A DNA stretch of 64,000 nt from Candidatus Omnitrophota bacterium (GTDB lineage Bacteria; Omnitrophota; Gorgyraeia; Gygaellales; Profunditerraquicolaceae), in NCBI GenBank assembly GCA_030650425.1, contig JAUSED010000009.1, positions 142,846-206,845 of the forward strand. The letters are read 5' to 3'. The notes beneath the pieces are model-generated. The model made no database searches. It was not told the origin of the DNA and saw only the letters and a program-made list of their open reading frames with translations. This document shows, in pieces, positions 15,957-64,000 of the stretch; positions within the stretch are counted from its first letter, which is position 1; each line of letters begins with the position of its first letter. Position numbers and translations under genes: made by a program.

Positions 15957-16012
15957 CACCCCGCGCTTATAAGGAATTGCGCGGGTATGCCTTTCCGGGC
16001 AAGGAGGTGCGT

Positions 16013-16408
16013 ATGGTATTAAAAAAGAAGACTAAGAAAAAGGTGGTTACGGTTAAGAAAAAGGCGTTAAAAAATAAAACTCCGAAGAAAATAGCTACAA
16101 AGAAACCCGCGAAGAAAAGCGTATCCAAAAAGAAACCGGCAGTTATCAAAGTTAAGAAAGCAAAGGAGAGAGTAATAGGAACCATTACGCATTATTTCCC
16201 GCATGTGCAGGCAGCGGTAATCAAATTAAAGGCTCCTTTAGCGGCGGGACAGACAATTAAAATTAAGGGCCATACCACAGATTTTATCCAAGCCATAACC
16301 TCGATGCAGATTGACCGCGTTCCAATAAATTCAGCTAAGGCCGGCCAAGAGATCGGATTATTGGTTAATTCCAGGGTCAGGCAGGGAGATTTAGTTTATA
16401 AAGCCTAA
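16013..16408 (+). CDS. Lysine-rich histone-H1-like protein with a C-terminal beta-barrel-like domain
   Basis: AAGGAGG RBS then ATG; about 50 N-terminal residues are more than 50% Lys (KKKTKKKVVTVKKKALKNKTPKK...). Confidence 0.5.
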   Translation: MVLKKKTKKKVVTVKKKALKNKTPKKIATKKPAKKSVSKKKPAVIKVKKAKERVIGTITHYFPHVQAAVIKLKAPLAAGQTIKIKGHTTDFIQAITSMQIDRVPINSAKAGQEIGLLVNSRVRQGDLVYKA

Positions 16409-16421
16409 AAAGGAGGGAGAG

Positions 16422-16604
16422 TTGAGACTTTCAGAGGTTGAAAAAAAAGCTAAGAACTTAGGGATCAAAGACACGTGGAGGTTATCGAAGAAAGACTTAA
16501 TCAAAACTATCCAGCGCACCGAAGGAAATACCGCCTGCTTTGCCACAGCTCGTAATTATTGTGACCAGCTGATCTGCTGTTGGAGGAGCGACTGCGTAAA
16601 ATGA
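16422..16604 (+). CDS. Small Rho_N-like (Rho termination factor N-terminal domain-like) protein with Cys-rich tail
   Basis: LSEVEKKAKNLGIKDTWRLSKKDLIKTIQ resembles Rho_N/SAP-like motif; CFATARNYCDQLICCWRSDC tail. Confidence 0.4.
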   Translation: MRLSEVEKKAKNLGIKDTWRLSKKDLIKTIQRTEGNTACFATARNYCDQLICCWRSDCVK

Positions 16605-16786
16605 AATATAAATGCCAGATCTGCGAACGAGATATCGATGATTTTGCCAGCTTGGCCCACATTAAGGCTGAGGAATATCTGCTGGAGCTAATCAGGCGCG
16701 ACCATCCTGAATGGCATGAAAGTAAGAAAACCTGCCATAAATGCGTCGATTACTACCGTAAATTAGTCAAAGAAAACGAAGTTTAG
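16580..16786 (+). CDS. Small zinc-finger protein (CxxC...CxxC)
   Basis: KCQICERD...CHKCVDYY; likely starts at the internal Met near 16601. Confidence 0.4.
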   Translation: MEERLRKMKYKCQICERDIDDFASLAHIKAEEYLLELIRRDHPEWHESKKTCHKCVDYYRKLVKENEV

Positions 16787-16899
16787 GATTAGCTAAATAA
16801 AGTTAGATACAAGCCGTAGCGGACACTTAAATGTCCGCTACGATTACAATAAGGCTATCTTTTAGAGTAGGTACCCATAATAAATACGGCGTTAAAACT

Positions 16900-16915
16900 C
16901 GGTAAGTTTAAGTAA
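16900..16915. repeat. Left 16-bp inverted repeat bracketing the DUF134-LAGLIDADG-HTH module
   Basis: cggtaagtttaagtaa; exact reverse complement at 18316..18331. Confidence 0.8.
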
Positions 16916-16922
16916 GCTTCTT

Positions 16923-17249
16923 ATGCAGACACGCGGCAGGCCAAAAAAATACAGGATAGTGCATCTTGACCCTAAAATAAGCCAGTTTAGCCCAAGGGGC
17001 AGGCCCGGCAGGCCTAATGAAGTGGACCTGAGCATGGATGAATTCGAGTCATTACGGCTGGCTGATCATATGGGATTACCGCAGAAAGAGGCAGCTAAAT
17101 CCATGCGTATATCTCAACAAACCTTTAGCCGGATATTAAAGAGAGCGCATAGAAGCATTGCTAACGCATTAGTTAATGGCAATACCATAAGAATACAGGG
17201 CGGCCATTACGTAATCAGTTCCCGAGAAGAGAATGAGAAAACTATCTGA
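16923..17249 (+). CDS. DUF134/UPF0251-like HTH DNA-binding protein
   Basis: PRGRPGRP...LSMDEFESLRLADHMGLPQKEAAKSMRISQQTFSRILKRAHRSIANAL (sigma-70 region 4-like HTH). Confidence 0.65.
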   Translation: MQTRGRPKKYRIVHLDPKISQFSPRGRPGRPNEVDLSMDEFESLRLADHMGLPQKEAAKSMRISQQTFSRILKRAHRSIANALVNGNTIRIQGGHYVISSREENEKTI

Positions 17250-17895
17250 CTTAAGCAAAGAAAAATTAACCAGCCTATACCTTAACGAAAAGAAATCCAT
17301 GGGAGATATAGCTAAAATCTATGGCGTTTCCCGGACAGCGATATATAAAAGACTGAAAATATATGCTATAAAACAACGTTCTAAGTCAGAAGCAAGGATT
17401 GAAGCACAGAAACAAGATAAACTTCCCCAATTAATTGAGAAGGTTAAAAAGGTTACTGGCTCAGAACATAAAATAACGCCATCTAGACACCAGAAAGGAT
17501 TATATTACTTTCATTTCGCCAGAGAAAAACTTGCGGCGGATTTAGCGAAACTCGGTGTTTTACCCAGAAAGAGCCTAACAGTCAAATTCCCGCAGGTTCC
17601 AGAAAAACACCTGGCTGATTTCATAAGAGGAATCTTTGACGGTGATGGCAGTGTGTTCTTTGATAAGCGCCGGCCAAAATTCCCCTTACGATCAAAGTTT
17701 GTTAGTGGTTCGGAGGCCTTTATAGAAGGATTACAAAAGGCCATTGAAGATTATTTAGGTATGCCTAAAAGGACAATTTATAAACAAAAAACCAAGAATG
17801 GATGGAGTCATATGTTTATATATGGACATAAAGACAGCACAAAATTGTTTGAAATTTTATATAAAAATACCCAAAATGGGCTATTTAGAACGTAA
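17233..17895 (+). CDS. Free-standing LAGLIDADG-family homing-endonuclease-like protein with N-terminal HTH
   Basis: LAGLIDADG motif FIRGIFDGDGSV; N-terminal HTH MGDIAKIYGVSRTAIYKRLK; overlaps upstream gene by 17 nt. Confidence 0.7.
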   Translation: MRKLSDLSKEKLTSLYLNEKKSMGDIAKIYGVSRTAIYKRLKIYAIKQRSKSEARIEAQKQDKLPQLIEKVKKVTGSEHKITPSRHQKGLYYFHFAREKLAADLAKLGVLPRKSLTVKFPQVPEKHLADFIRGIFDGDGSVFFDKRRPKFPLRSKFVSGSEAFIEGLQKAIEDYLGMPKRTIYKQKTKNGWSHMFIYGHKDSTKLFEILYKNTQNGLFRT

Positions 17896-17945
17896 ATACA
17901 ACCGTTTTTTAGAGGGTTTAAAAGGAATTTAAGGAAGCATATACT

Positions 17946-18131
17946 ATGGATGGACGGCTTAAAGAATGGGTAGATTGGCATAAAGGACAGATTAGCAGTT
18001 TCCACACCAAGGACTTAGCGGCAAATTTAGGAGTTTCAACCCGGACAATTCAACGCTGGATAAAAGAACAGACAAAGCCCAAGGAAGATCAATTACAGAG
18101 AATCACGCAGTACGTAAAGGAAAACAGTTAA
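17946..18131 (+). CDS. Small HTH protein
   Basis: LAANLGVSTRTIQRWIKEQ helix-turn-helix. Confidence 0.45.
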   Translation: MDGRLKEWVDWHKGQISSFHTKDLAANLGVSTRTIQRWIKEQTKPKEDQLQRITQYVKENS

Positions 18132-18315
18132 AGGGGAAGCACAAAGGCAATTAACCGATAAAAACAGTCGGTTTTCTTATATGCTTGTATGTCGCACAAG
18201 TGCCCATAATATATCTTATGTTAACTTCAACATATTGGCTAATCTGCTCTAAAGCCTTGGTTGGTAATGGGTTGAATGAGGCCTGTGTTTTCCTGTGGAT
18301 AAGCACTTTTTCATT

Positions 18316-18331
18316 TACTTAAACTTACCGC
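18316..18331. repeat. Right 16-bp inverted repeat (partner of 16900..16915)
   Basis: ttacttaaacttaccg is the reverse complement of cggtaagtttaagtaa. Confidence 0.8.
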
Positions 18332-18406
18332 CTTCTTTTAGGCTTAACATTTCTGGGAAGATTTATAGATGAAACTACCGGGATTTTTTGGCTTTAATCG
18401 CCTATT

Positions 18407-24321: not shown

Positions 24322-24375
24322 GGGGGACACTTTCCTTTTAAGAGTTTCTGATAGCCCTGACAGAAAATGTCCCCT
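24322..24375. repeat. GGGGACACTTTCC...GAAAATGTCCCC hairpin element
   Basis: 13-nt arms separated by ~27-nt loop containing ctgatagccctgaca. Confidence 0.8.
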
Positions 24376-26364: not shown

Positions 26365-26877
26365 TCACCGTGCAGCCATAAGATAACCCCTTGCCCTTTC
26401 AGCCAATTTATAACGCGCAACAATATCCCAGAATGCCTTGCTGTGATTTGGTTCGATTAAATGCGCCATTTCGTGTATTACAACATACTTTCTGACCCAC
26501 TCCGGCATCAGGCCTATTTTATGCGAGATGCGAATCCTGGCGGCGCGATAATTACAGCAACCAAACCTGCTATTCTGCGTAGTGACATACTCTATTGATT
26601 CTAATTTAACCTTATTACCAAAATATTTTTCATTCAACGAACTCGCCAAATCCAAAAGATTCTGTTCTTTATCCAACTCCGCCTTAATCTTTTTTCTTTC
26701 GAATTTTAATTTAAAACCACTTACAATCTTATCCAAACGCTCTTGAGCCAGCATTAAGGGAGCATTAACTAAAAGCAGGTCATTAACTAATCTAGCGCTC
26801 ACTGTTCTGCGGCGCCTCGAACTACGGATTATTTTTACTTCCATATTTTTCCAATACTCTGGCAAATACCCGTACAA
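26365..26877 (-). CDS. YgjP/DUF45-family metal-dependent hydrolase (SprT-like HExxH)
   Basis: VVIHEMAHLIEPNHSKAFW zinc-binding motif. Confidence 0.7.
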   Translation of the reverse strand: MYGYLPEYWKNMEVKIIRSSRRRRTVSARLVNDLLLVNAPLMLAQERLDKIVSGFKLKFERKKIKAELDKEQNLLDLASSLNEKYFGNKVKLESIEYVTTQNSRFGCCNYRAARIRISHKIGLMPEWVRKYVVIHEMAHLIEPNHSKAFWDIVARYKLAERARGYLMAAR

Positions 26878-28240
26878 CCTCAGGACTAAACTGGGTTCCC
26901 GCGCATTTTTCTATCCTCGCCAACGCCTCTTTTTTGGTTAACGCCGTATTATAAGAACGCGAGGTAATCATCGCGTCATACGCATCCGCGACCGCGACGA
27001 TCTGCGCGAAAATATCGATCTGATCGGCTTTCAAGCCGTCAGGATAACCTTTGCCGTCATAATGTTCATGATGCGACCGAACCACAGAAAGCATTTGCGG
27101 ATCCGAGACTACGGGTTTTAATATCTCTTCTCCTACCTCAGGGTGTTTATGGACGATATCCCATTCACTTTCCGACAGGCCCTCTTTCTTATTCAATATA
27201 TCCTCATGGATGCCTAATTTTCCGATATCATGCAGCTGCGCTGTTTTTTTCAGTAATTCCGCCTTTTCAAGAGGCACCCCCATTTCCAGCGCGATCCCAT
27301 AGGCATATTCCCCAACCCTGTCCGAGTGGCCGCGGGTATAAGGATCTTTTGCTTCTAAGCTGCGCACCATTGCCTGCACCACGCGATAAAAATAATCGCG
27401 TAATTTGTCCCGGGCAGCTGCCAGGCTTGAGGCCATATTATTAAAAGAGGCGGCGAGTTGGCCAATCTCATCCTGAGAGGAAATCTCCACTCGATATTCC
27501 AAGTCGCCTTTGGTTATATGCTTAGTGCCGTCAATTAATTTTTTAATCGGAGCGATTATTCTGGCGGAAAATATGAAACCGAGGCCCAAGGCAATAATCA
27601 CACCCATAAACAAGACAAATATACCCCTGTATAATAAATCTCTTCCGGCAGAATAGACATCAGCGGCATCTATATCTATACCCAAAATAGCAACAGGACT
27701 GTTTCTCTGATCAAAAATAGGCGCATACCCTGAAAGAAGTTTACCCCATTCATCAATAGTCAAGTTAGTGTCCACGCTGGCTCCGGTAAAGGCCTTAAGC
27801 ATTTCGGGAAAACGCTGGGCATCGTATTTATCACCGGGATAAGATGTCGCTCCCAACCTGGTAATTCTTTCTGTCAGCGCGTCAGGATCAACCACAAACT
27901 GCCAGATACCCGGCTGATCTGTTTTGGCCATTATATAGATATACCTAATAACCGGATTAACCTGTTTTATTTTTAACAACTGGATAGCAATGTTCTTAAA
28001 GGAAGGGTTATTTATTCCCTCACGATTGAGTGGAATATTATTCAGCGCGGCGGCATCAATGGAAAGAGCGGCTGTTTGAGTAATTACCTTAAGTTTATCT
28101 CTAAGCTGATCGAACTGTGATTTTAAACTGTATCTAAAAAGGATAAAATTCCCCAGCAGCGCCACAAATAATAAAGAGAGAGTAAAAGACAGGGTTACCT
28201 TTACGTAAAAACTATTAAAAATTGATCTTTTCTTTTTCAT
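26822..28240 (-). CDS. Membrane sensor with periplasmic (Cache-like) domain, HAMP and HD-GYP c-di-GMP phosphodiesterase domain
   Basis: Two TM segments; HAMP; HD...HHEHYDGKGYPDGL HD-GYP signature. Confidence 0.75.
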   Translation of the reverse strand: MKKKRSIFNSFYVKVTLSFTLSLLFVALLGNFILFRYSLKSQFDQLRDKLKVITQTAALSIDAAALNNIPLNREGINNPSFKNIAIQLLKIKQVNPVIRYIYIMAKTDQPGIWQFVVDPDALTERITRLGATSYPGDKYDAQRFPEMLKAFTGASVDTNLTIDEWGKLLSGYAPIFDQRNSPVAILGIDIDAADVYSAGRDLLYRGIFVLFMGVIIALGLGFIFSARIIAPIKKLIDGTKHITKGDLEYRVEISSQDEIGQLAASFNNMASSLAAARDKLRDYFYRVVQAMVRSLEAKDPYTRGHSDRVGEYAYGIALEMGVPLEKAELLKKTAQLHDIGKLGIHEDILNKKEGLSESEWDIVHKHPEVGEEILKPVVSDPQMLSVVRSHHEHYDGKGYPDGLKADQIDIFAQIVAVADAYDAMITSRSYNTALTKKEALARIEKCAGTQFSPEVVRVFARVLEKYGSKNNP

Positions 28241-28258
28241 ATATCTTAAGTGAAGCTA

Positions 28259-28311
28259 AGGGACAGTTTCCTGTCCGGCCTCCGTGAATAGCCATCTACG
28301 GAAACTGTCCC
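28259..28311. repeat. Variant hairpin element GGGGACAGTTTCC...GGAAACTGTCCC (compensatory variant of the GGGGACACTTTCC family)
   Basis: C-to-G change in left arm matched by G-to-C in right arm; loop retains gaatagccatctacgg. Confidence 0.75.
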
Positions 28312-28336
28312 TTGAACCGCTTTATTGATTACTTCT

Positions 28337-28528
28337 TTAACGTCCTTCGTTCTTACGCTTGGAATAACATTCCTTGCAGTATATCGGACGGTCTTCTCTG
28401 GGTTTAAAAGGAACTTCGCACTCTTTTTTACATTCTGAACAAACCGCTTTGTGCATCTCCCTTGGCCCGCCAAATCCACCGCCACCACCACCTTGATACG
28501 CCATCTTGCTGCCTCCTTGTTGGTACAA
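28337..28528 (-). CDS. Small Gly-rich protein with C-terminal CxxC...CxxC zinc ribbon
   Basis: GGGGGGFGG then CSECKKECEVPFKPREDRPIYCKECY. Confidence 0.4.
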   Translation of the reverse strand: MYQQGGSKMAYQGGGGGGFGGPREMHKAVCSECKKECEVPFKPREDRPIYCKECYSKRKNEGR

Positions 28529-46912: not shown

Positions 46913-47040
46913 CCCTAGTAGGGGACACTTTCCAGACTCGGACAGTAGGGGACACTTTCCAACAAGCAGTAAACGAGCGTAGGAAAATGTCCCCTACTGC
47001 GTCTAGGAAAGTATCCTCTGAGCGCGCCCTGAGCGCGGGT
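46913..47040. repeat. Composite cluster of GGGGACACTTTCC-family units
   Basis: Two direct cagtaggggacactttcc copies, one inverted ggaaaatgtcccctactg arm, one degenerate ggaaagtatcc unit; 35-nt module shared with 61190..61235. Confidence 0.8.
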
Positions 47041-55519: not shown

Positions 55520-55630
55520 TATAGGGGACACTTTCCTTTAGTCATAGGGGACACTTTCCTTTTGGGTGTTCCCTGATAGCCCTGACGGAAAATGTCCCCT
55601 TCTGGGCTGATGGAAAGTGTCCCCTGCTGT
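55520..55630. repeat. Cluster of two nested/tandem GGGGACACTTTCC...GGAAARTGTCCCC hairpin units
   Basis: Left arms at 55524 and 55547; right arms at 55597 and 55612; loop ctgatagccctgac. Confidence 0.85.
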
Positions 55631-56381: not shown

Positions 56382-57211
56382 TCCGCACCTACTTTTGGAT
56401 AGGGGACACTTTCCTTTAAAGGGCTTCGCGATAGCGCTGATGGAAAGTGTCCCCTGCGGTTGGGGTTTGGAAAGTGTCCCCTTCGACTGATGTTTCTCAC
56501 TATAATTACCGAAAGGTATCCTAAATTTTTATCCTCCAGAGAAGCGAGATCCCTAACAATCCTTTCATTAGCTTGTCCTGCATGGCTAATCAGCACTGAA
56601 GAAGCTAAAAGTTTCATCTTTTTAAGAAGCCGGATAATACTCTCTAACTTTGAGCCTATTTTCATTAATACCACTGTGTCAAATTCTTTTAGGGCTTCCT
56701 TTAAGCCTTTAAGATTCTTGACTACTGGTAAGATAGCCATTTTTTCATCACCCTTTAAGAGAGGTAAACCAATAGATGCCGCCGCGGCGCCAAACGCGCT
56801 AATTCCCGGAATAGTCTCTGTTTCCAGATAAGGAAAATTACTGCGCAGGGTCTCTAGAAGGTAAATATAGGTACTATAGATAAATGGATCCCCTATGGTA
56901 ACAAATGCGGCAGCCTTATTCTTTTTTAATTCCTCAACAATTATCTTAGCTGCGTTTAGCCAATAAGATTGCAGCTTATTCTTATCCTTAGTCATCGGAA
57001 AAGTAAGTTCAATAAAATTCTTATCTCCCAAAGCAAGTGCCTCTACTATGGAGCGGGCGCAAGATTTTCCGCCTTCGCTTGCCTTAGGAACAAAAATCGT
57101 CTTAACTTCATTGAGTATTTCTTTTGCCCTTAAGGTAAGCAGCTTTGGGTCACCCGGCCCAATACCTACCCCATAAAGTTTGCCCTTTATTTCGTTACTA
57201 CCATTACGCAT
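56378..57211 (-). CDS. cbiL: Cobalt-precorrin-2 C20-methyltransferase
   Basis: LYGVGIGPGDPKLLTLRA; C-terminal ...RRGHFPNPNRRGHFPSAL tail is repeat-encoded. Confidence 0.75.
   Translation of the reverse strand: MRNGSNEIKGKLYGVGIGPGDPKLLTLRAKEILNEVKTIFVPKASEGGKSCARSIVEALALGDKNFIELTFPMTKDKNKLQSYWLNAAKIIVEELKKNKAAAFVTIGDPFIYSTYIYLLETLRSNFPYLETETIPGISAFGAAAASIGLPLLKGDEKMAILPVVKNLKGLKEALKEFDTVVLMKIGSKLESIIRLLKKMKLLASSVLISHAGQANERIVRDLASLEDKNLGYLSVIIVRNISRRGHFPNPNRRGHFPSALSRSPLKESVPYPKVGAE
56400..56485. repeat. GGGGACACTTTCC hairpin unit with duplicated right arm
   Basis: Left arm 56402..56414; right arms 56442..56454 and 56469..56481; loop cgcgatagcgctga. Confidence 0.85.
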
Positions 57212-57812: not shown

Positions 57813-57970
57813 TGCATCTTGTTGTAGGGGACACTTTCCTTTAAGCCGTCTCTTATAGCTCTGACGGAAAATGTCCCCTGCGGTTGTGCATCTTGTTGTA
57901 GGGGACACTTTCCTTTAAGCCGTCTCTTATAGCTCTGGTGGAAAGTGTCCCCTTCCGGGGTCCCCTACGG
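57813..57970. repeat. 74-nt tandem duplication, each unit carrying a complete GGGGACACTTTCC...GGAAARTGTCCCC hairpin
   Basis: tgcatcttgttgtaggggacactttcctttaagccgtctcttatagctctg(a/g)(c/t)ggaaa(a/g)tgtcccc occurs twice, period 74. Confidence 0.85.
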
Positions 57971-59040
57971 CTTTTAGGATATTCTGCTAATACCTCTCCC
58001 TGCAAGGAAAGCAGCACGCAGTCAATCGAAAGCTGATGATTTACAAATTCATTCAGCACATCTACCGTTCTTTTTGCGAGCATATCAAAAGTCCGCGTAA
58101 ACTTGTGTTTCTTTAATATATCAACAGCGGCTTCGGCTGATACTTGTCTGGACACCTCTTCAATAATCTCTTTTCCCGCTCCGCAAAGCAAGGCAAAATT
58201 CGCGATTGTCTTGATACGATTATCCCCGAATTTGATATTGGTGTCAAGCTGGCCATGCGCAACCTTCACTAATTTACCAATATAACCTACCAAAAGCACT
58301 TTTTTTATTTTCTTATTCAAGCATTCAGAGAGCATAAATCCGACATGGTCCCCAATTTTGACGATGGAATCCGGTTTAAGTTTAAGCCTTTCTTGACAAA
58401 ATTTTTCTCCCACATACCCTAAAACAAGAGTAGCCCTTCTATATCCCGCGGCCTTCAGCACGTCGAGTTGAAGAGATAAAGATGTCTTGTAGGCATCCGT
58501 TGATTTAGGCTCGACTATCCCGGTTGTACCGATTATAGATATGCCTCCCACAATGCCCAGCCTGGCGTTAAATGTGCGTTTGGCTATCTCCCTTCCTTTG
58601 GGAACGCTGATGATCGCCTCGATCCCTTTCCCTTGGTGGAGTAGATGCCTGACAATTTCTTTAAGAATCATCGATCTTGGCGTAGGATTAATCGCGTATT
58701 CGCCGACTCTCACCGCTAATCCCGGCTTGGTAACTATACCAACTCCTTCTGCGCCTCGCAAGAAAATCCCTTTTTTCCCGGAATATTGCACCCGCGCACA
58801 GATCCTAACGCCATTAGTTACATCAGGATCATCTCCGGCATCTTTAATTACCCCGCACTGAGCAAAATCCCTGCCTATTTTTTGGCCAACGATCTTCAGC
58901 TTAAGCTTTACGCCTTTAGGAGTTTCCACCTCAACGCTTTTTACCGGCTTTTTGGCGGCAAGCATAAGGCTCGCGGCTTTAGCAGCTGCCTGAGCACAGG
59001 TACCGGTGGTAAATCCTTTCCTTAGTGGTATTGAGTTCAT
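57853..59040 (-). CDS. cbiD: Cobalt-precorrin-5B C1-methyltransferase
   Basis: LRKGFTTGTCAQAAAKAA; C-terminal ~35 aa are repeat-encoded. Confidence 0.8.
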   Translation of the reverse strand: MNSIPLRKGFTTGTCAQAAAKAASLMLAAKKPVKSVEVETPKGVKLKLKIVGQKIGRDFAQCGVIKDAGDDPDVTNGVRICARVQYSGKKGIFLRGAEGVGIVTKPGLAVRVGEYAINPTPRSMILKEIVRHLLHQGKGIEAIISVPKGREIAKRTFNARLGIVGGISIIGTTGIVEPKSTDAYKTSLSLQLDVLKAAGYRRATLVLGYVGEKFCQERLKLKPDSIVKIGDHVGFMLSECLNKKIKKVLLVGYIGKLVKVAHGQLDTNIKFGDNRIKTIANFALLCGAGKEIIEEVSRQVSAEAAVDILKKHKFTRTFDMLAKRTVDVLNEFVNHQLSIDCVLLSLQGEVLAEYPKSRRGPRKGTLSTRAIRDGLKESVPYNKMHNRRGHFPSEL

Positions 59041-59957
59041 TGTGTTAATTGAGTCGTAGGGGACACTTTCCTTTTGAGAGTCCCCGGATAGCCCTGACGG
59101 AAAATGTCCCCTTCTGCGCGCCCTACGGTTGGTAAACTCTTTATAGCTTCTCTTGCCTCACCAATAGTAAGCGGAAGGCTGTTAAAATTAAATCCATCTT
59201 TTTTCCTTAAAATCTCGAATAAATGCCCTATGCGGGGTAATCTCAATTTGGCCTCCCGGATTACCTGGGCCTGAGAAAAAACATTTTCGGGCTTACCATC
59301 AAGTATAATTCTTCCTTGATTTAAGATAATCACACGATCGATGAACAAAGGCACCAGATCCACAGAGTGCGTGGACATCACCATAGTGATTCCATTTTCT
59401 TTGTTTAATTTTCTCAATAGCCGCATAATGGCGCTCGCTCCCATCGGGTCCAGGGATGAAGTTGGTTCATCCAAAAGCATCACCTCCGGCCCCATAGCTA
59501 AAACGCCGGCTAAACAAATCCTTTTCTTCTCGCCGAAACTTAAATTATGTATAGGCTTATCAGTAAATTCTAACATACTGACCGCGCCAAGCGCGTACTC
59601 TATTCTTTTAGAGACCTCCTCTTTGGTAAGCCCCATATTCACCGGGCCAAAGGCGATATCTTCGCCTACGGTCGAAGCAAACAGCTGGTCATCGGGATTT
59701 TGAAAACAAGTACATATTTTTCTAAATAGCATATCCTTGTTGATGGATCTAATATTCTTCCCTTCCAAATAAATCTCGCCTTTCGCGGTTTTTAGAAGGT
59801 GGTTCAGTATTTTTAAGAGCGTTGTTTTACCGGAACCATTGGCGCCTAAGACACCTAAAAACTCACCTTTCTTGACCGAAAGATTGATACTCCGCAAAAC
59901 GGATTTTCCGTCAGGATAACTAAAGTGGAGATCTTTTGCTTCCAGAATATCGACCAT
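59037..59957 (-). CDS. cbiO: Cobalt ECF transporter ATPase component
   Basis: GANGSGKTT, LSFGEKKR, LLDEPTSSLD; C-terminal ~25 aa are repeat-encoded. Confidence 0.8.
   Translation of the reverse strand: MVDILEAKDLHFSYPDGKSVLRSINLSVKKGEFLGVLGANGSGKTTLLKILNHLLKTAKGEIYLEGKNIRSINKDMLFRKICTCFQNPDDQLFASTVGEDIAFGPVNMGLTKEEVSKRIEYALGAVSMLEFTDKPIHNLSFGEKKRICLAGVLAMGPEVMLLDEPTSSLDPMGASAIMRLLRKLNKENGITMVMSTHSVDLVPLFIDRVIILNQGRIILDGKPENVFSQAQVIREAKLRLPRIGHLFEILRKKDGFNFNSLPLTIGEAREAIKSLPTVGRAEGDIFRQGYPGTLKRKVSPTTQLTQ
59053..59130. repeat. GGGGACACTTTCC hairpin unit with extended outer stem CGTAGGG...CCCTACG
   Basis: Arms at 59059..59071 and 59099..59111; loop ccggatagccctgac. Confidence 0.85.
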
Positions 59958-60090: not shown

Positions 60091-60820
60091 ATAGGAAGAG
60101 ACTGTTCAATATTAAAAGCGCCCCTAAAATTATAATGAAAATGATAACGGCGGCAGTATCTTTGAAACTAAACTCTTTTTCTCCGGAGATATTCCGCGTC
60201 GAACCGTCGTATCCGCGCAGCAGCATAGATTCATATACCGCGATCGAGCGATCATAGGCCCTGATCACGGTTGAGCCCATTAATTCGCCAAAAGATTTCA
60301 AACTCCGGCCTAAACTGCTGTATCCTAAACGCGCTCTTTGGGCATTCCTGATCGTAACCGCGTCCTCCAGCAATACAAAGCTGTAGCGATAACTAAGCAT
60401 AGCTATCTCAACCCAGGTATTCGGCACTTGAAACCAGCGGGCCGCATGGAGCAGCTTATTTACCGGCGTGGTCATCGATAAGCATATAATTAAAGAAACG
60501 GCGCCTAAGACCCTTGCCACAATTAAGAAACCGGCTGCCAATCCATCGGCCATTCCATAAAAGAAGATCTGCATAATAAAAATCGCGCCTACCACACCCA
60601 AGGGGACGGCTAATCTAAGTAGAATAATCTTCGGCGGTATGCCGATCCCTAAAAGGATAACCAAAGATGAGAAAAAAACAATCAATGGCAGATAAGCATT
60701 ACGCGAAGAAACTACGATCATTATAGCCGCGGCTATAAAAAGCGCCTTGGCTCTCGCGTCCACCTCCGTTAAATAGTTTACCTTTTGAGCAAAATGATCA
60801 CTAAATACTTCGTTCAGCAA
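60080..60820 (-). CDS. cbiQ: Cobalt ECF transporter T component
   Basis: Multi-TM CbiQ pattern; 7-nt overlap with cbiM-N start. Confidence 0.7.
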   Translation of the reverse strand: MLNEVFSDHFAQKVNYLTEVDARAKALFIAAAIMIVVSSRNAYLPLIVFFSSLVILLGIGIPPKIILLRLAVPLGVVGAIFIMQIFFYGMADGLAAGFLIVARVLGAVSLIICLSMTTPVNKLLHAARWFQVPNTWVEIAMLSYRYSFVLLEDAVTIRNAQRARLGYSSLGRSLKSFGELMGSTVIRAYDRSIAVYESMLLRGYDGSTRNISGEKEFSFKDTAAVIIFIIILGALLILNSLFLSSF

Positions 60821-61986
60821 TTATGTCCCTTTTTCTCGGTAAAAAGCTTTCTAAAATTATAACCCATTACAAATCCTCCTGCCGCGCCTGCCAGAAGGAA
60901 AACAAAAAGCAACAGATCCCCTTGGTCGGTATTGATAAACGGCGTCCAGGCAGGCCGTCCATGTTCCGCGCTAATCTTCTCCACCACGCTCTCATCTACT
61001 CCGCTCCATTTAGGTAACAGTTCAACTAGCAAAAGAACTCTGTCGTAGGGGATGTCGTAGGGGACACTTTCCTTTTCAGGGCTTCGCGATAGCGCTGATG
61101 GAAAGTGTCCCCTGCGGTTAGGGCTTAACGCGCGCGAAGACAAGACGGCTATTGACGCAGGGGCACTTTCCTTTGAGTCTTGAGGGGACACTTTCCTACT
61201 CGCGTTTACTACTTGTTGGAAAGTGTCCCCTATGCGTGGAAAGTGTCCCCTACGGTTAAGGTTTAACGCGAAGGCAGGCTGGCTATTGGCGCATAAAAGC
61301 AGGCATATGAATAGAACGCCTATACTCTTTTTTACCACTCCCAGCGAAACTAAAATCTCAGGCCTTCTTTTATAGACAAAAACAATCATTCCCCCGGTCA
61401 AAAATCCCTCTAATATGCCTAAAGGAAGTTGCGTAGGAATAAAGGCAATCAGTACAGTGTAAAAAAGCGCTAACATCGGTTTGCTTCCATGAAGGGCCGA
61501 GGCCAATTCCAAGGAAGTTGTGATATAGGTAGCCCAATCCGCTAAAAGCCCGGCTGCAAATCCACAAAAGAATAAAGGAAGTTTAAATTTTCTTAATATC
61601 TTGAATGCGATGAAGGCGGCAAATGAACCGGCTATACCCATAGATACAATATCCGCGCCCCAAGTAGTCAGGCCGCCATGGGCTAAAAATAAAGCCTGGA
61701 TAAGCAAGGCAATGGAAGTTACAAATATGCTCATTATCGGCCCGATTAAAATGGCTGATATTCCGGTTCCGGCAGGATGAGAACAGGTGCCAGCGGTAGG
61801 CACAGGCACAGGCATACAGGAGATAACAAAAACAAGGGCTCCCATCAGCCCTAAAAGAGGTTTAAAACTTGGAGTTAGTTTTACCTTCTTCTTTATATCA
61901 AAGATCCCCTTGATCAGAAAAGGAGCGGCTAGCGCAGACCAGATACCAGCCCACCACAAAGGAAGAATCCCTTCTGAAATATGCAT
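60814..61986 (-). CDS. cbiMN: CbiM fused in frame to CbiN through ~250 nt of repeat sequence
   Basis: N-terminus MHISEGILPLWW... (CbiM); C-terminus ...GVDESVVEKISAEHGRPAWTPF...LLLFVFLLAGAAGGFVMGY (CbiN); no stop through 61040..61292. Confidence 0.65.
   Translation of the reverse strand: MHISEGILPLWWAGIWSALAAPFLIKGIFDIKKKVKLTPSFKPLLGLMGALVFVISCMPVPVPTAGTCSHPAGTGISAILIGPIMSIFVTSIALLIQALFLAHGGLTTWGADIVSMGIAGSFAAFIAFKILRKFKLPLFFCGFAAGLLADWATYITTSLELASALHGSKPMLALFYTVLIAFIPTQLPLGILEGFLTGGMIVFVYKRRPEILVSLGVVKKSIGVLFICLLLCANSQPAFALNLNRRGHFPRIGDTFQQVVNASRKVSPQDSKESAPASIAVLSSRALSPNRRGHFPSALSRSPEKESVPYDIPYDRVLLLVELLPKWSGVDESVVEKISAEHGRPAWTPFINTDQGDLLLFVFLLAGAAGGFVMGYNFRKLFTEKKGHNC
61040..61292. repeat. 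Largest cluster of GGGGACACTTTCC-family units: two copies of a ~110-nt composite unit, inside the cbiM-N reading frame
   Basis: Arms at 61060, 61100, 61159, 61184, 61218, 61238; direct repeat gg(t)taacgcg...ggctattg(a/g)cgca at 61116..61160 and 61253..61292. Confidence 0.85.
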
Positions 61987-63293: not shown

Positions 63294-63343
63294 AGTTTAT
63301 TCTTGATAAATAGATAAATAGGGACAGCGCCCATTTTTTTAGC

Positions 63344-64000
63344 TTAACGAACAGAAAAAAAATGGGCGCTGTCCCTATTTATCCTACAGCTGTTAATAAA
63401 GTTTTTAGCGAAATCCGTATTAGAGGCAAAATGCAGATGCGCGTAGCTGGCTAAAACGTTCTTAGTGACTAAACCGTCGTAAAATAGATTATCCTTGTCT
63501 TTGATGATTCTATAGGCAAAGGTAGAATTTTTAGGAATATTCGTAAGGCGCGACCAGTGGAAGAGATGCGCCCGATTTCTATCACCTTGATTACTCAATA
63601 TATTATCTTTGATCACCTGTACATTCACATAACCCATCCTATGCAACCTGTTACCCATATTCACTGAGCATTTAAATACCCCCACCATAGGGAATTTTCT
63701 TTTTTGGAAATCGATTAAATTTTTGACTAAATACATTAATCCGCCGCATTCGGCATAGATCGGCAGGCCATCTTTAGCTTTTTGATAAATCGACTGCCTG
63801 AGGCTTGCGTTCTTCGATAAATCAGAGGCAAAAACTTCCGGAAACCCGCCGCCAATATATAAACCATCGATCCCCTTCGGTAATTCCCTATCCCTCAAGG
63901 GGCTAAAGGTAACAATCTCTGCCCCCAAATGCTTCAATATATCCAGATTGTCCTGATAATAAAAATGAAAAGCCTTATCCTTGGCAATCGCTATCGTCAC
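63344..64000 (-). CDS. cbiA: Cobyrinate a,c-diamide synthase, 3'-partial (glutamine amidotransferase domain only; N-terminal part beyond window end)
   Basis: KDKAFHFYYQDNLDILK...GLYIGGGFPE...AECGGLMYL GATase-1 pattern; ORF open to the window edge. Confidence 0.75.
   Translation of the reverse strand: MTIAIAKDKAFHFYYQDNLDILKHLGAEIVTFSPLRDRELPKGIDGLYIGGGFPEVFASDLSKNASLRQSIYQKAKDGLPIYAECGGLMYLVKNLIDFQKRKFPMVGVFKCSVNMGNRLHRMGYVNVQVIKDNILSNQGDRNRAHLFHWSRLTNIPKNSTFAYRIIKDKDNLFYDGLVTKNVLASYAHLHFASNTDFAKNFINSCRINRDSAHFFSVR

Follow-up and report, generated by a model that had tools for sequence, protein, structure and literature searches.

What does a perfect hairpin just ahead of an HD-GYP sensor gene, with arms that carry compensated base changes, represent in this stretch of Omnitrophota DNA: a regulatory RNA structure held by selection, or a copy of a dispersed element? 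The original prediction described it as a variant of a hairpin family in which a C-to-G change in the left arm is matched by a G-to-C change at the paired position of the right arm, and took this as direct evidence for a maintained base-paired element. Here the window denotes the whole 64-kb stretch that was analysed. The hairpin spans 28258-28313 of the plus strand as two arms around a 28-nt loop (Table 1) and forms a perfect 14-bp stem, in which the 12-nt core arms aaGGGACAGTTTCC (28260-28271) and GGAAACTGTCCCtt (28300-28311) are fully complementary and complementarity extends to the pairing of 28258-28271 with 28300-28313. Against the window consensus arms, (A)GGGGACACTTTCC ... GGAAA[G/A]TGTCCCC(T), the C-to-G and G-to-C exchange is real and falls at position 7, where this copy has G-C and the family has C-G or U.G. 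It is one of two compensated pairs, the second of which had been overlooked: the outer pair, G-C in the family, is A-T in this copy (A 28259, T 28312). The arm string given earlier, GGGGACAG, accordingly contains one G too many, the base before GGGACAG being the A at 28259. The similarity claimed for the loop, GAATAGCCATCTACGG versus GATAGCCCTGACGG, is correct. The CACTTTCC/GGAAAATG variation that had been offered as further covariation turned out to be a one-sided G>A change: on the plus strand it leaves C.A, a mismatch, and only on the minus strand does it pair, as U.G.

A chance palindrome was rejected from the excess of arm matches, the fold z-score and the covariance-model score. With up to two mismatches allowed, the 12-mer arm has 29 matches in the window compared with 3.7 expected, a number that none of 100 shuffles reached. 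The minus-strand RNA of the hairpin folds at -33.9 kcal/mol (z = -5.2), and the family covariance model assigns it 61.3 bits (E ~7e-16; rank 4 among the ten full hairpins of the window), a score that is partly built in because the training alignment of 61 copies included this and other window copies. A known RNA family was also rejected: when Rfam covariance models were run on the window only a tRNA passed and no family matched the hairpin, and at E values up to 1 there was no overlap with hairpins in the window or in nine related loci.

Table 1. Coordinates of the hairpin, its neighbouring genes and other family copies in the window, with the loci of a related hairpin family
Feature	Position	Strand	Details
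Hairpin under study, arm	28258..28271	-	plus-strand AAGGGACAGTTTCC; 3' arm on sense strand; position 7 G-C, outer pair A-T
Hairpin under study, loop (28 nt)	28272..28299	-	sense strand GTAGATGGCTATTCACGGAGGCCGGACA; 'loop type A', GCTAT core
Hairpin under study, other arm	28300..28313	-	plus-strand GGAAACTGTCCCTT; 5' arm on sense strand
HAMP + HD-GYP (HD_5) sensor gene, downstream of hairpin	26822..28240	-	ATG 19 nt past hairpin
Small zf_Tbcl_2 gene, upstream of hairpin	28337..28504	-	55 aa as called in L001; stop 25 nt ahead of hairpin core
Family copy	24323..24374	-	position 7 U.G and second U.G at inner stem end; 55.5 bits
Nested family copy	46921..47018	-	two left arms, loop, two right arms; outer right arm degenerate
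Nested family copy	55524..55624	-	between tetrapyrrole methylase gene and cbiG
Family copy with one extra right arm	56402..56481	-	between two tetrapyrrole methylase genes
Two family copies in 74-nt tandem duplication	57827..57952	-	downstream of cbiD
Family copy	59059..59111	-	between ABC ATPase gene and cbiD; top model score in window, 64 bits
Two clustered family copies, one simple and one nested	61060..61250	-	tail of mechanical CbiM ORF
Loci of GTGTCA/TGACAC-ended hairpin family	genome L008, L038, L050; metagenome L104, L119, L151

All genes from 18 to 64 kb lie on the minus strand, and the hairpin stands, as had been stated, upstream of the HD-GYP sensor gene (19 nt from its ATG) and outside the cbi cluster. 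The window holds ten full family hairpins. The others occupy gene junctions of the cobalamin cluster (CbiG, three tetrapyrrole methylases, CbiD, ABC ATPase, CbiQ and CbiM), where hairpins separate almost every gene pair of the cbi operon; beyond this cluster, one copy follows a biotin carboxylase gene and another occupies the spacer ahead of a phospholipase-D-like gene. The copy at 61185 and its homologue at 46949 lie in opposite orientations, the former with C-G in place of the wobble, and in the 74-nt tandem duplication (57822-57957) one of the two hairpins has a U.G wobble and the other C-G. All sense frames of the arms are free of stop codons, and gene callers may therefore extend or fuse genes at hairpin clusters; the mechanical ORFs of CbiM (60814-61986; 390 aa, with the Pfam domain only at 2-211) and CbiD (57853-59040; 395 aa) both traverse such clusters.

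Other features of the window were observed alongside. A short palindrome at 16814-16843, GTAGCGGACACTTAAATGTCCGCTAC, scores 21.8 bits with the family model, and its module recurs as the loop of L023 and L060 in the form GTAGCCGACACTTAAGTGTCGGCTAC, a further C-G to G-C exchange. A long palindrome at 63315-63381, ATAGGGACAGCGCCCATTTTTTT...AAAAAAATGGGCGCTGTCCCTAT, sits at the junction of two minus-strand ORFs, resembles a two-way terminator and has its outer TAGGGACAG module in common with the variant studied here. At ~16000-18400 the GC skew flips sign where gene strands converge (plus end 17895, minus end 18407), a pattern that reflects either a switch like that at a replication terminus or simply coding-strand bias.

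Scanning with the two arms in one genome per species, with position 7 left free, recovered 59 loci, mostly from Candidatus Omnitrophota MAGs, and family copies occupy short intergenic spacers in ~15 Omnitrophota MAGs. The 14-bp stem reads A-T, then G-C (at times C-G or A-T), then GGGACA-N-TTTCC (57-61 copies), and among 61 distinct copies position 7 is U.G in 35, C-G in 18 and G-C in 7. The loop measures 20-28 nt, rarely 40, and comes in several types with a GCTAT core in common; it is polar, with 5' G and 3' A in one orientation in 43 of 57 copies, and near-identical loops recur at many loci within one genome. RNAalifold offered only invariant pairs as a conserved inner loop structure. Copies lie a few to ~100 nt from the adjacent stop or start codons, in many cases with a Shine-Dalgarno-like motif directly on their 3' side, and when the ORFs at all loci were clustered all against all, the only recurrent neighbours were spurious ORFs overlapping the repeats. 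The family further includes nested forms (left-left-loop-right-right) and a 26-nt tandem arm array; in the latter (L022, 1431-1610) three left arms are followed by four right arms at a 26-nt period (GGAAAGTGTCCCC and TTCAGCGTGGGGC repeated), and the array would fold as a very long segmented hairpin. One locus, L024, begins with the 3' end of a 23S rRNA gene (1-77) and has two family hairpins within the next 1.6 kb; a 5S rRNA match was not reported in the search that showed the 23S end. A further hairpin family, in Xanthomonadales-type MAGs, combines this 12-nt core with additional GTGTCA/TGACAC ends (Table 1); its position 7 is mostly A-T and sometimes G-C. On inspection only, attC sites and CRISPR repeats were set aside, given the irregular spacing, the absence of R/L core motifs and the housekeeping neighbours. 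In the literature, neither the arm sequence nor Omnitrophota palindromic repeats were found in any paper.

Stem pairing is kept throughout the family. Across the 61 distinct copies, 96.5% of stem cells are paired, dropping to 34-61% in slid controls, and changes on both sides occur at 3 of the 14 pairs, in 24 cells compared with 4.4 in column shuffles, a statistic that ignores phylogeny and that none of 500 shuffles reached. At the outer pair, which the genome scan left unconstrained, the counts are G-C 45, C-G 8, A-U 3, G.U 2 and other 3. A metagenome scan, in which both arms had to be off-consensus at position 7 and all nine combinations were permitted, gave G-C 107, A-T 6, T-A 4, G.T 2 and mismatch 5, so that 117 of the 124 non-consensus copies are Watson-Crick there. 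Loops homologous to the 28-nt loop of the hairpin under study occur with U.G arms (L024, L025, L046, L051, L009, L032) and with G-C arms (L134, L136, L179), and the last three loci match it in both arms and loop. Among the 11 copies with this loop, position 7 is U.G in 7 and G-C in 4, and the outer pair is G-C in 5, A-U in 3, C-G in 2 and mismatched in 1. The G-C pair at position 7 is thus a subfamily trait and not a lone mutation and, since a whole subfamily inherited it, few events underlie many cells. The arms are more constrained than the loops, changes at positions 0 and 7 are compensated, and 11 of the 14 pairs hardly vary between species, which points to sequence-specific recognition or recent spread and not to structure alone. 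Palindromes can also gain 'compensatory' changes without selection, by hairpin-templated (quasipalindrome) mutation, and pairing can be required in single-stranded DNA, as a transposase substrate. The original interpretation is thus supported in part: the predicted base-paired element stands, as the paired cells and two-sided changes attest, but the covariation, by itself, is no proof of a functional RNA structure.

The history of the locus was read from orthologues of the HD-GYP gene that are 75-85% identical. Only two of these, L061 and L062, retain the junction between the zf_Tbcl_2 and HD-GYP genes: L061 (83% protein identity) has a 15-nt junction spacer without a hairpin, and the junction in L062 (85%) holds a different, unrelated palindrome. 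The HD-GYP gene has a different upstream neighbour in L063/L064 (82%; 25-nt spacer) and in L065/L066 (75%; 1-nt spacer). The family covariance model found no copy in ~48 kb of orthologous loci (L061, L062, L063, L065), and the copy studied here is therefore best understood as the insertion of a dispersed element. An ancient conserved structure at this locus was rejected, as the orthologous HD-GYP loci of relatives are without the hairpin. The palindrome of L062, the closest relative, lies at 1950-1996 (CTAGTCATTGCTAGCC...GGCTAGCAATGACTA), the site orthologous to that of the hairpin, and the same zf-to-HD-GYP spacer has thus held two different hairpin repeats in two genomes.

A mobilizing enzyme was sought by tblastn with E. 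coli RAYT (REP-associated tyrosine transposase) and IS608 TnpA sequences, by a scan for the HUH...Y..NP motif and by tblastn with the RAYTs of L106 and L187. Across all DNA collected, the motif scan returned one ORF (L106, 635-1222, minus strand), which matches Pfam Y1_Tnp (PF01797) at 48.5 bits (cut-off 23) and whose best NCBIfam match is the REP-associated tyrosine transposase model at 60.3 bits, short of the equivalog cut-off of 80, with IS200 at 17.7 bits. Hairpins with arms GGGGACAGTTTCC/GGAAACTGTCCCC flank this gene on both sides (544-605 and 1324-1384). Two loci retrieved by protein homology alone, L188 (gene 97% identical to that of L106) and L187 (74%), likewise have same-arm hairpins on both sides of the gene, the L187 loops being unrelated; in all, these are three metagenome contigs with two distinct genes that are 74% identical. 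The arm sequence found at these genes thus behaves as the REP of a RAYT subclade. In L189 and L190, whose RAYT-like genes share ~60% identity with that of L106, neither a hairpin nor an inverted repeat flanks the gene. A GC-rich family with a loop of 38 nt accounts for most G-C matches of the metagenome scan, and one genome-scan match of this type is in a Phycisphaerae MAG (L015). In the loci L067-L186 (for example L108, L110 and L126), direct copies of a second repeat (GACTGTCGCGAACGTTT-like) stand on either side of the GC-rich hairpins, an arrangement suggestive of insertion into another repeat family or of a composite with one.

The same-arm hairpins at RAYT genes sit on contigs of 60-62% GC that belong to another lineage, the source genome of the window having 42% GC. 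None of the searches revealed a Y1/RAYT gene in the window or in the ~0.4 Mb of Omnitrophota DNA covered. Named members of the wider RAYT clade come from Planctomycetes, Phycisphaerae, Acidobacteria and Hydrogenedentes; Omnitrophota is absent among them, and a protein search from the RAYT toward AT-rich relatives returned names from Planctomycetes, Phycisphaerae and Hydrogenedentes and, likewise, none from Omnitrophota. Membership of the Omnitrophota family in the RAYT system is thus argued from arm identity together with REP-like behaviour.

We consider it probable that the hairpin is a copy of a dispersed REP/REPIN-type palindromic repeat, from a new family, and not a new regulatory RNA. The element would consist of inverted 14-nt arms, (A)GGGGACA[C/T/G]TTTCC, around a 20-28-nt spacer, present in multiple copies in Candidatus Omnitrophota; this copy, which belongs to a subfamily with arms AGGGACAGTTTCC, G-C at position 7 and an A-T outer pair, would have inserted between the small zinc-finger gene and the HD-GYP gene. 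The arms of this G-C subfamily are those observed at RAYT genes elsewhere. The element would function in its folded, hairpin form, which would explain why arm pairing is kept, and we infer from the identical arms that flank such genes elsewhere that a Y1/HUH transposase of the RAYT type recognizes this hairpin in single-stranded DNA. As copies sit inside operons they would also be transcribed, and on the mRNA each would form a 14-bp hairpin without a U tract, probably acting as an intercistronic stabilizer or processing barrier. Target-site duplications were not detected (mean longest flank repeat 3.10 nt, compared with 2.99 in shuffled controls), as expected for Y1 transposition; a cut-and-paste MITE, for which inverted arms are present and the duplication is absent, was rejected because the flanks show no excess of direct repeats. 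Most REP families are defined by an unpaired tag, GTAG or CGTC, at one end (PMC3733652), which is not clearly present here: [G/A]TAG precedes 10 of the 13 window arms on the plus strand, but its AG lies inside the stem, the copy under study has CTAA there, and in many copies GTAG-like bases open the loop. Against the REP reading stand, besides this tag and the RAYT results for Omnitrophota and for L189 and L190, the conservation of the arm across many species, unusual for REPs, and the strand of the U.G wobble, which follows the flanking genes and also fits RNA selection.

This wobble is one reason to consider a primary role as a cis-acting RNA, whether mRNA stabilizer, RNase processing site or protein-binding hairpin, with the wobble and the G..A loop closure as recognition features and mobility secondary or past. 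The GGGACATTTTCC/GGAAAGTGTCCC arms pair as U.G on one strand and form a C.A mismatch on the other, and the U.G strand agrees with that of the neighbouring genes in 26 copies and disagrees in 6, a further 3 having mixed flanks; counted by genome the bias is 10 against 2 (p ~0.04), and within the window all five wobble copies have U.G on the gene strand. The inverted copy at 61185 with its C-G pair, the loop polarity, the positions close to stop and start codons or Shine-Dalgarno-like motifs and the possibility of read-through, given arms without stop codons or a U tract, all point the same way. However, Y1 transposases act on the lagging-strand template, as in IS608, and for genes co-oriented with replication the sense strand is that template, so the orientation bias does not separate RNA from single-stranded DNA; the GC skew of the window is consistent with such co-orientation. 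Outside position 7, moreover, G.U and A.C mismatches are equally frequent (5 versus 5), the MAG STB_56 has a perfect C-G subfamily in both orientations and wobble copies that ignore the gene strand, no Rfam family matches, and close relatives lack the element entirely, which would be odd for a needed regulatory RNA. A primary RNA function is therefore possible, though on balance doubtful; the RNA and single-stranded-DNA levels are inseparable by the present data and do not exclude each other. The same compensated pairs could instead have arisen by mutation, an arm change being copied to the other arm through intrastrand hairpin-templated repair, in which case covariation would be uninformative on function. 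This process is established, only three positions covary with the rest invariant, and a G-C state common to a whole subfamily implies few events, but templated repair leaves unexplained both the identity of the 12-nt arm across many species with diverging loops and the prevalence of an imperfect pair, U.G/T.G, as the commonest position 7 state (35 of 61); we regard this explanation as unlikely.

Readings in which the hairpin regulates the HD-GYP gene or ends a transcript fare worse. The stem is stable and GC-containing, as an intrinsic terminator or attenuator demands, but neither strand has a T run after it, a terminator scan made no call at this hairpin, the 20-28-nt loop is far above terminator size, and copies stand between almost all gene pairs of the cbi operon, which makes this function very unlikely. 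Also very unlikely is a double-stranded DNA operator in which a dimeric transcription factor binds the inverted repeat to control the HD-GYP gene: a perfect inverted repeat a short way ahead of a start codon would suit such a site, yet the half-site spacer varies from 20 to 40 nt, the same element recurs in nested arrays, within the cbi operon and at junctions of many genes that are unrelated, and relatives that keep the zf-to-HD-GYP junction have no such element there.

The REP/REPIN-type repeat that we favour resembles the REP/BIME sequences of E. coli and the REPINs of Pseudomonas fluorescens, with their RAYTs, in being a multi-copy short extragenic palindrome found mostly between co-directional genes, and, like REPINs, it has two inverted conserved units around a less conserved spacer, occurs in clusters and lacks a target-site duplication; the identical-arm hairpins at RAYT-type genes of three metagenome contigs extend the likeness. 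Co-transcription with genes is plausible, as for REPs (PMC3733652). It differs in that the ~0.4 Mb of Omnitrophota DNA searched yielded no RAYT, a clear unpaired GTAG/CGTC tag is absent, the arm is conserved apparently even across phyla whereas REP arms are species-specific, the large loop has its own conserved GCTAT core and G..A closure, and nested arrays run as direct left arms then direct right arms where BIMEs alternate. The subterminal hairpins of IS200/IS605 elements such as IS608 offer a second parallel, with a Y1 gene between two directly oriented hairpins (L106, L187, L188), folded single-stranded DNA recognized on one strand (as we infer for the family), no target duplication and stem strand asymmetry; here, however, the flanked gene best matches RAYT and not IS200, and solo hairpins far outnumber gene-carrying units. 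Neisseria Correia/NEMIS, enterobacterial ERIC and Rickettsia RPE elements are likewise inserted beside or at gene ends, co-transcribed and open to traversal by ORFs, and they fold as long RNA hairpins that alter mRNA stability, but they are 100-170 bp long with terminal inverted repeats and target duplications, compared with a family unit of ~56 nt and an undetectable duplication. With Rho-independent terminators the family has only a stable stem-loop after genes in common, and it departs from them in the missing U tract, the loop of 20-28 nt, the conserved arm sequence and the intra-operon location.

A broader and more speculative proposal, which we hold to be rather unlikely, would unite the GGGACA-N-TTTCC hairpins as one REP superfamily with a RAYT clade across the PVC group (here Omnitrophota and Phycisphaerae-like organisms). 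In Omnitrophota these hairpins would have been domesticated as sense-strand intercistronic RNA hairpins, and an RNA-binding protein or RNase of the host would recognize their conserved U.G wobble and G..A-closed loop, thereby setting differential expression in operons such as cbi.

Omnitrophota are uncultured and their genomes are annotated automatically, and a repeat that ORFs can traverse and that lies between almost all genes of an operon distorts gene calls. The same repeat is usable as a marker for strain typing and for tracing mobile DNA. The occurrence of the same 12-nt arm at RAYT genes elsewhere makes a testable case of transposase-hairpin co-evolution, because one base pair switches among subfamilies (C-G, U.G, G-C). 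We know of nothing reported on post-transcriptional regulation in the phylum Omnitrophota; if the sense-strand U.G bias does reflect RNA selection, selfish palindromes would have been recruited there for the control of operon mRNA.
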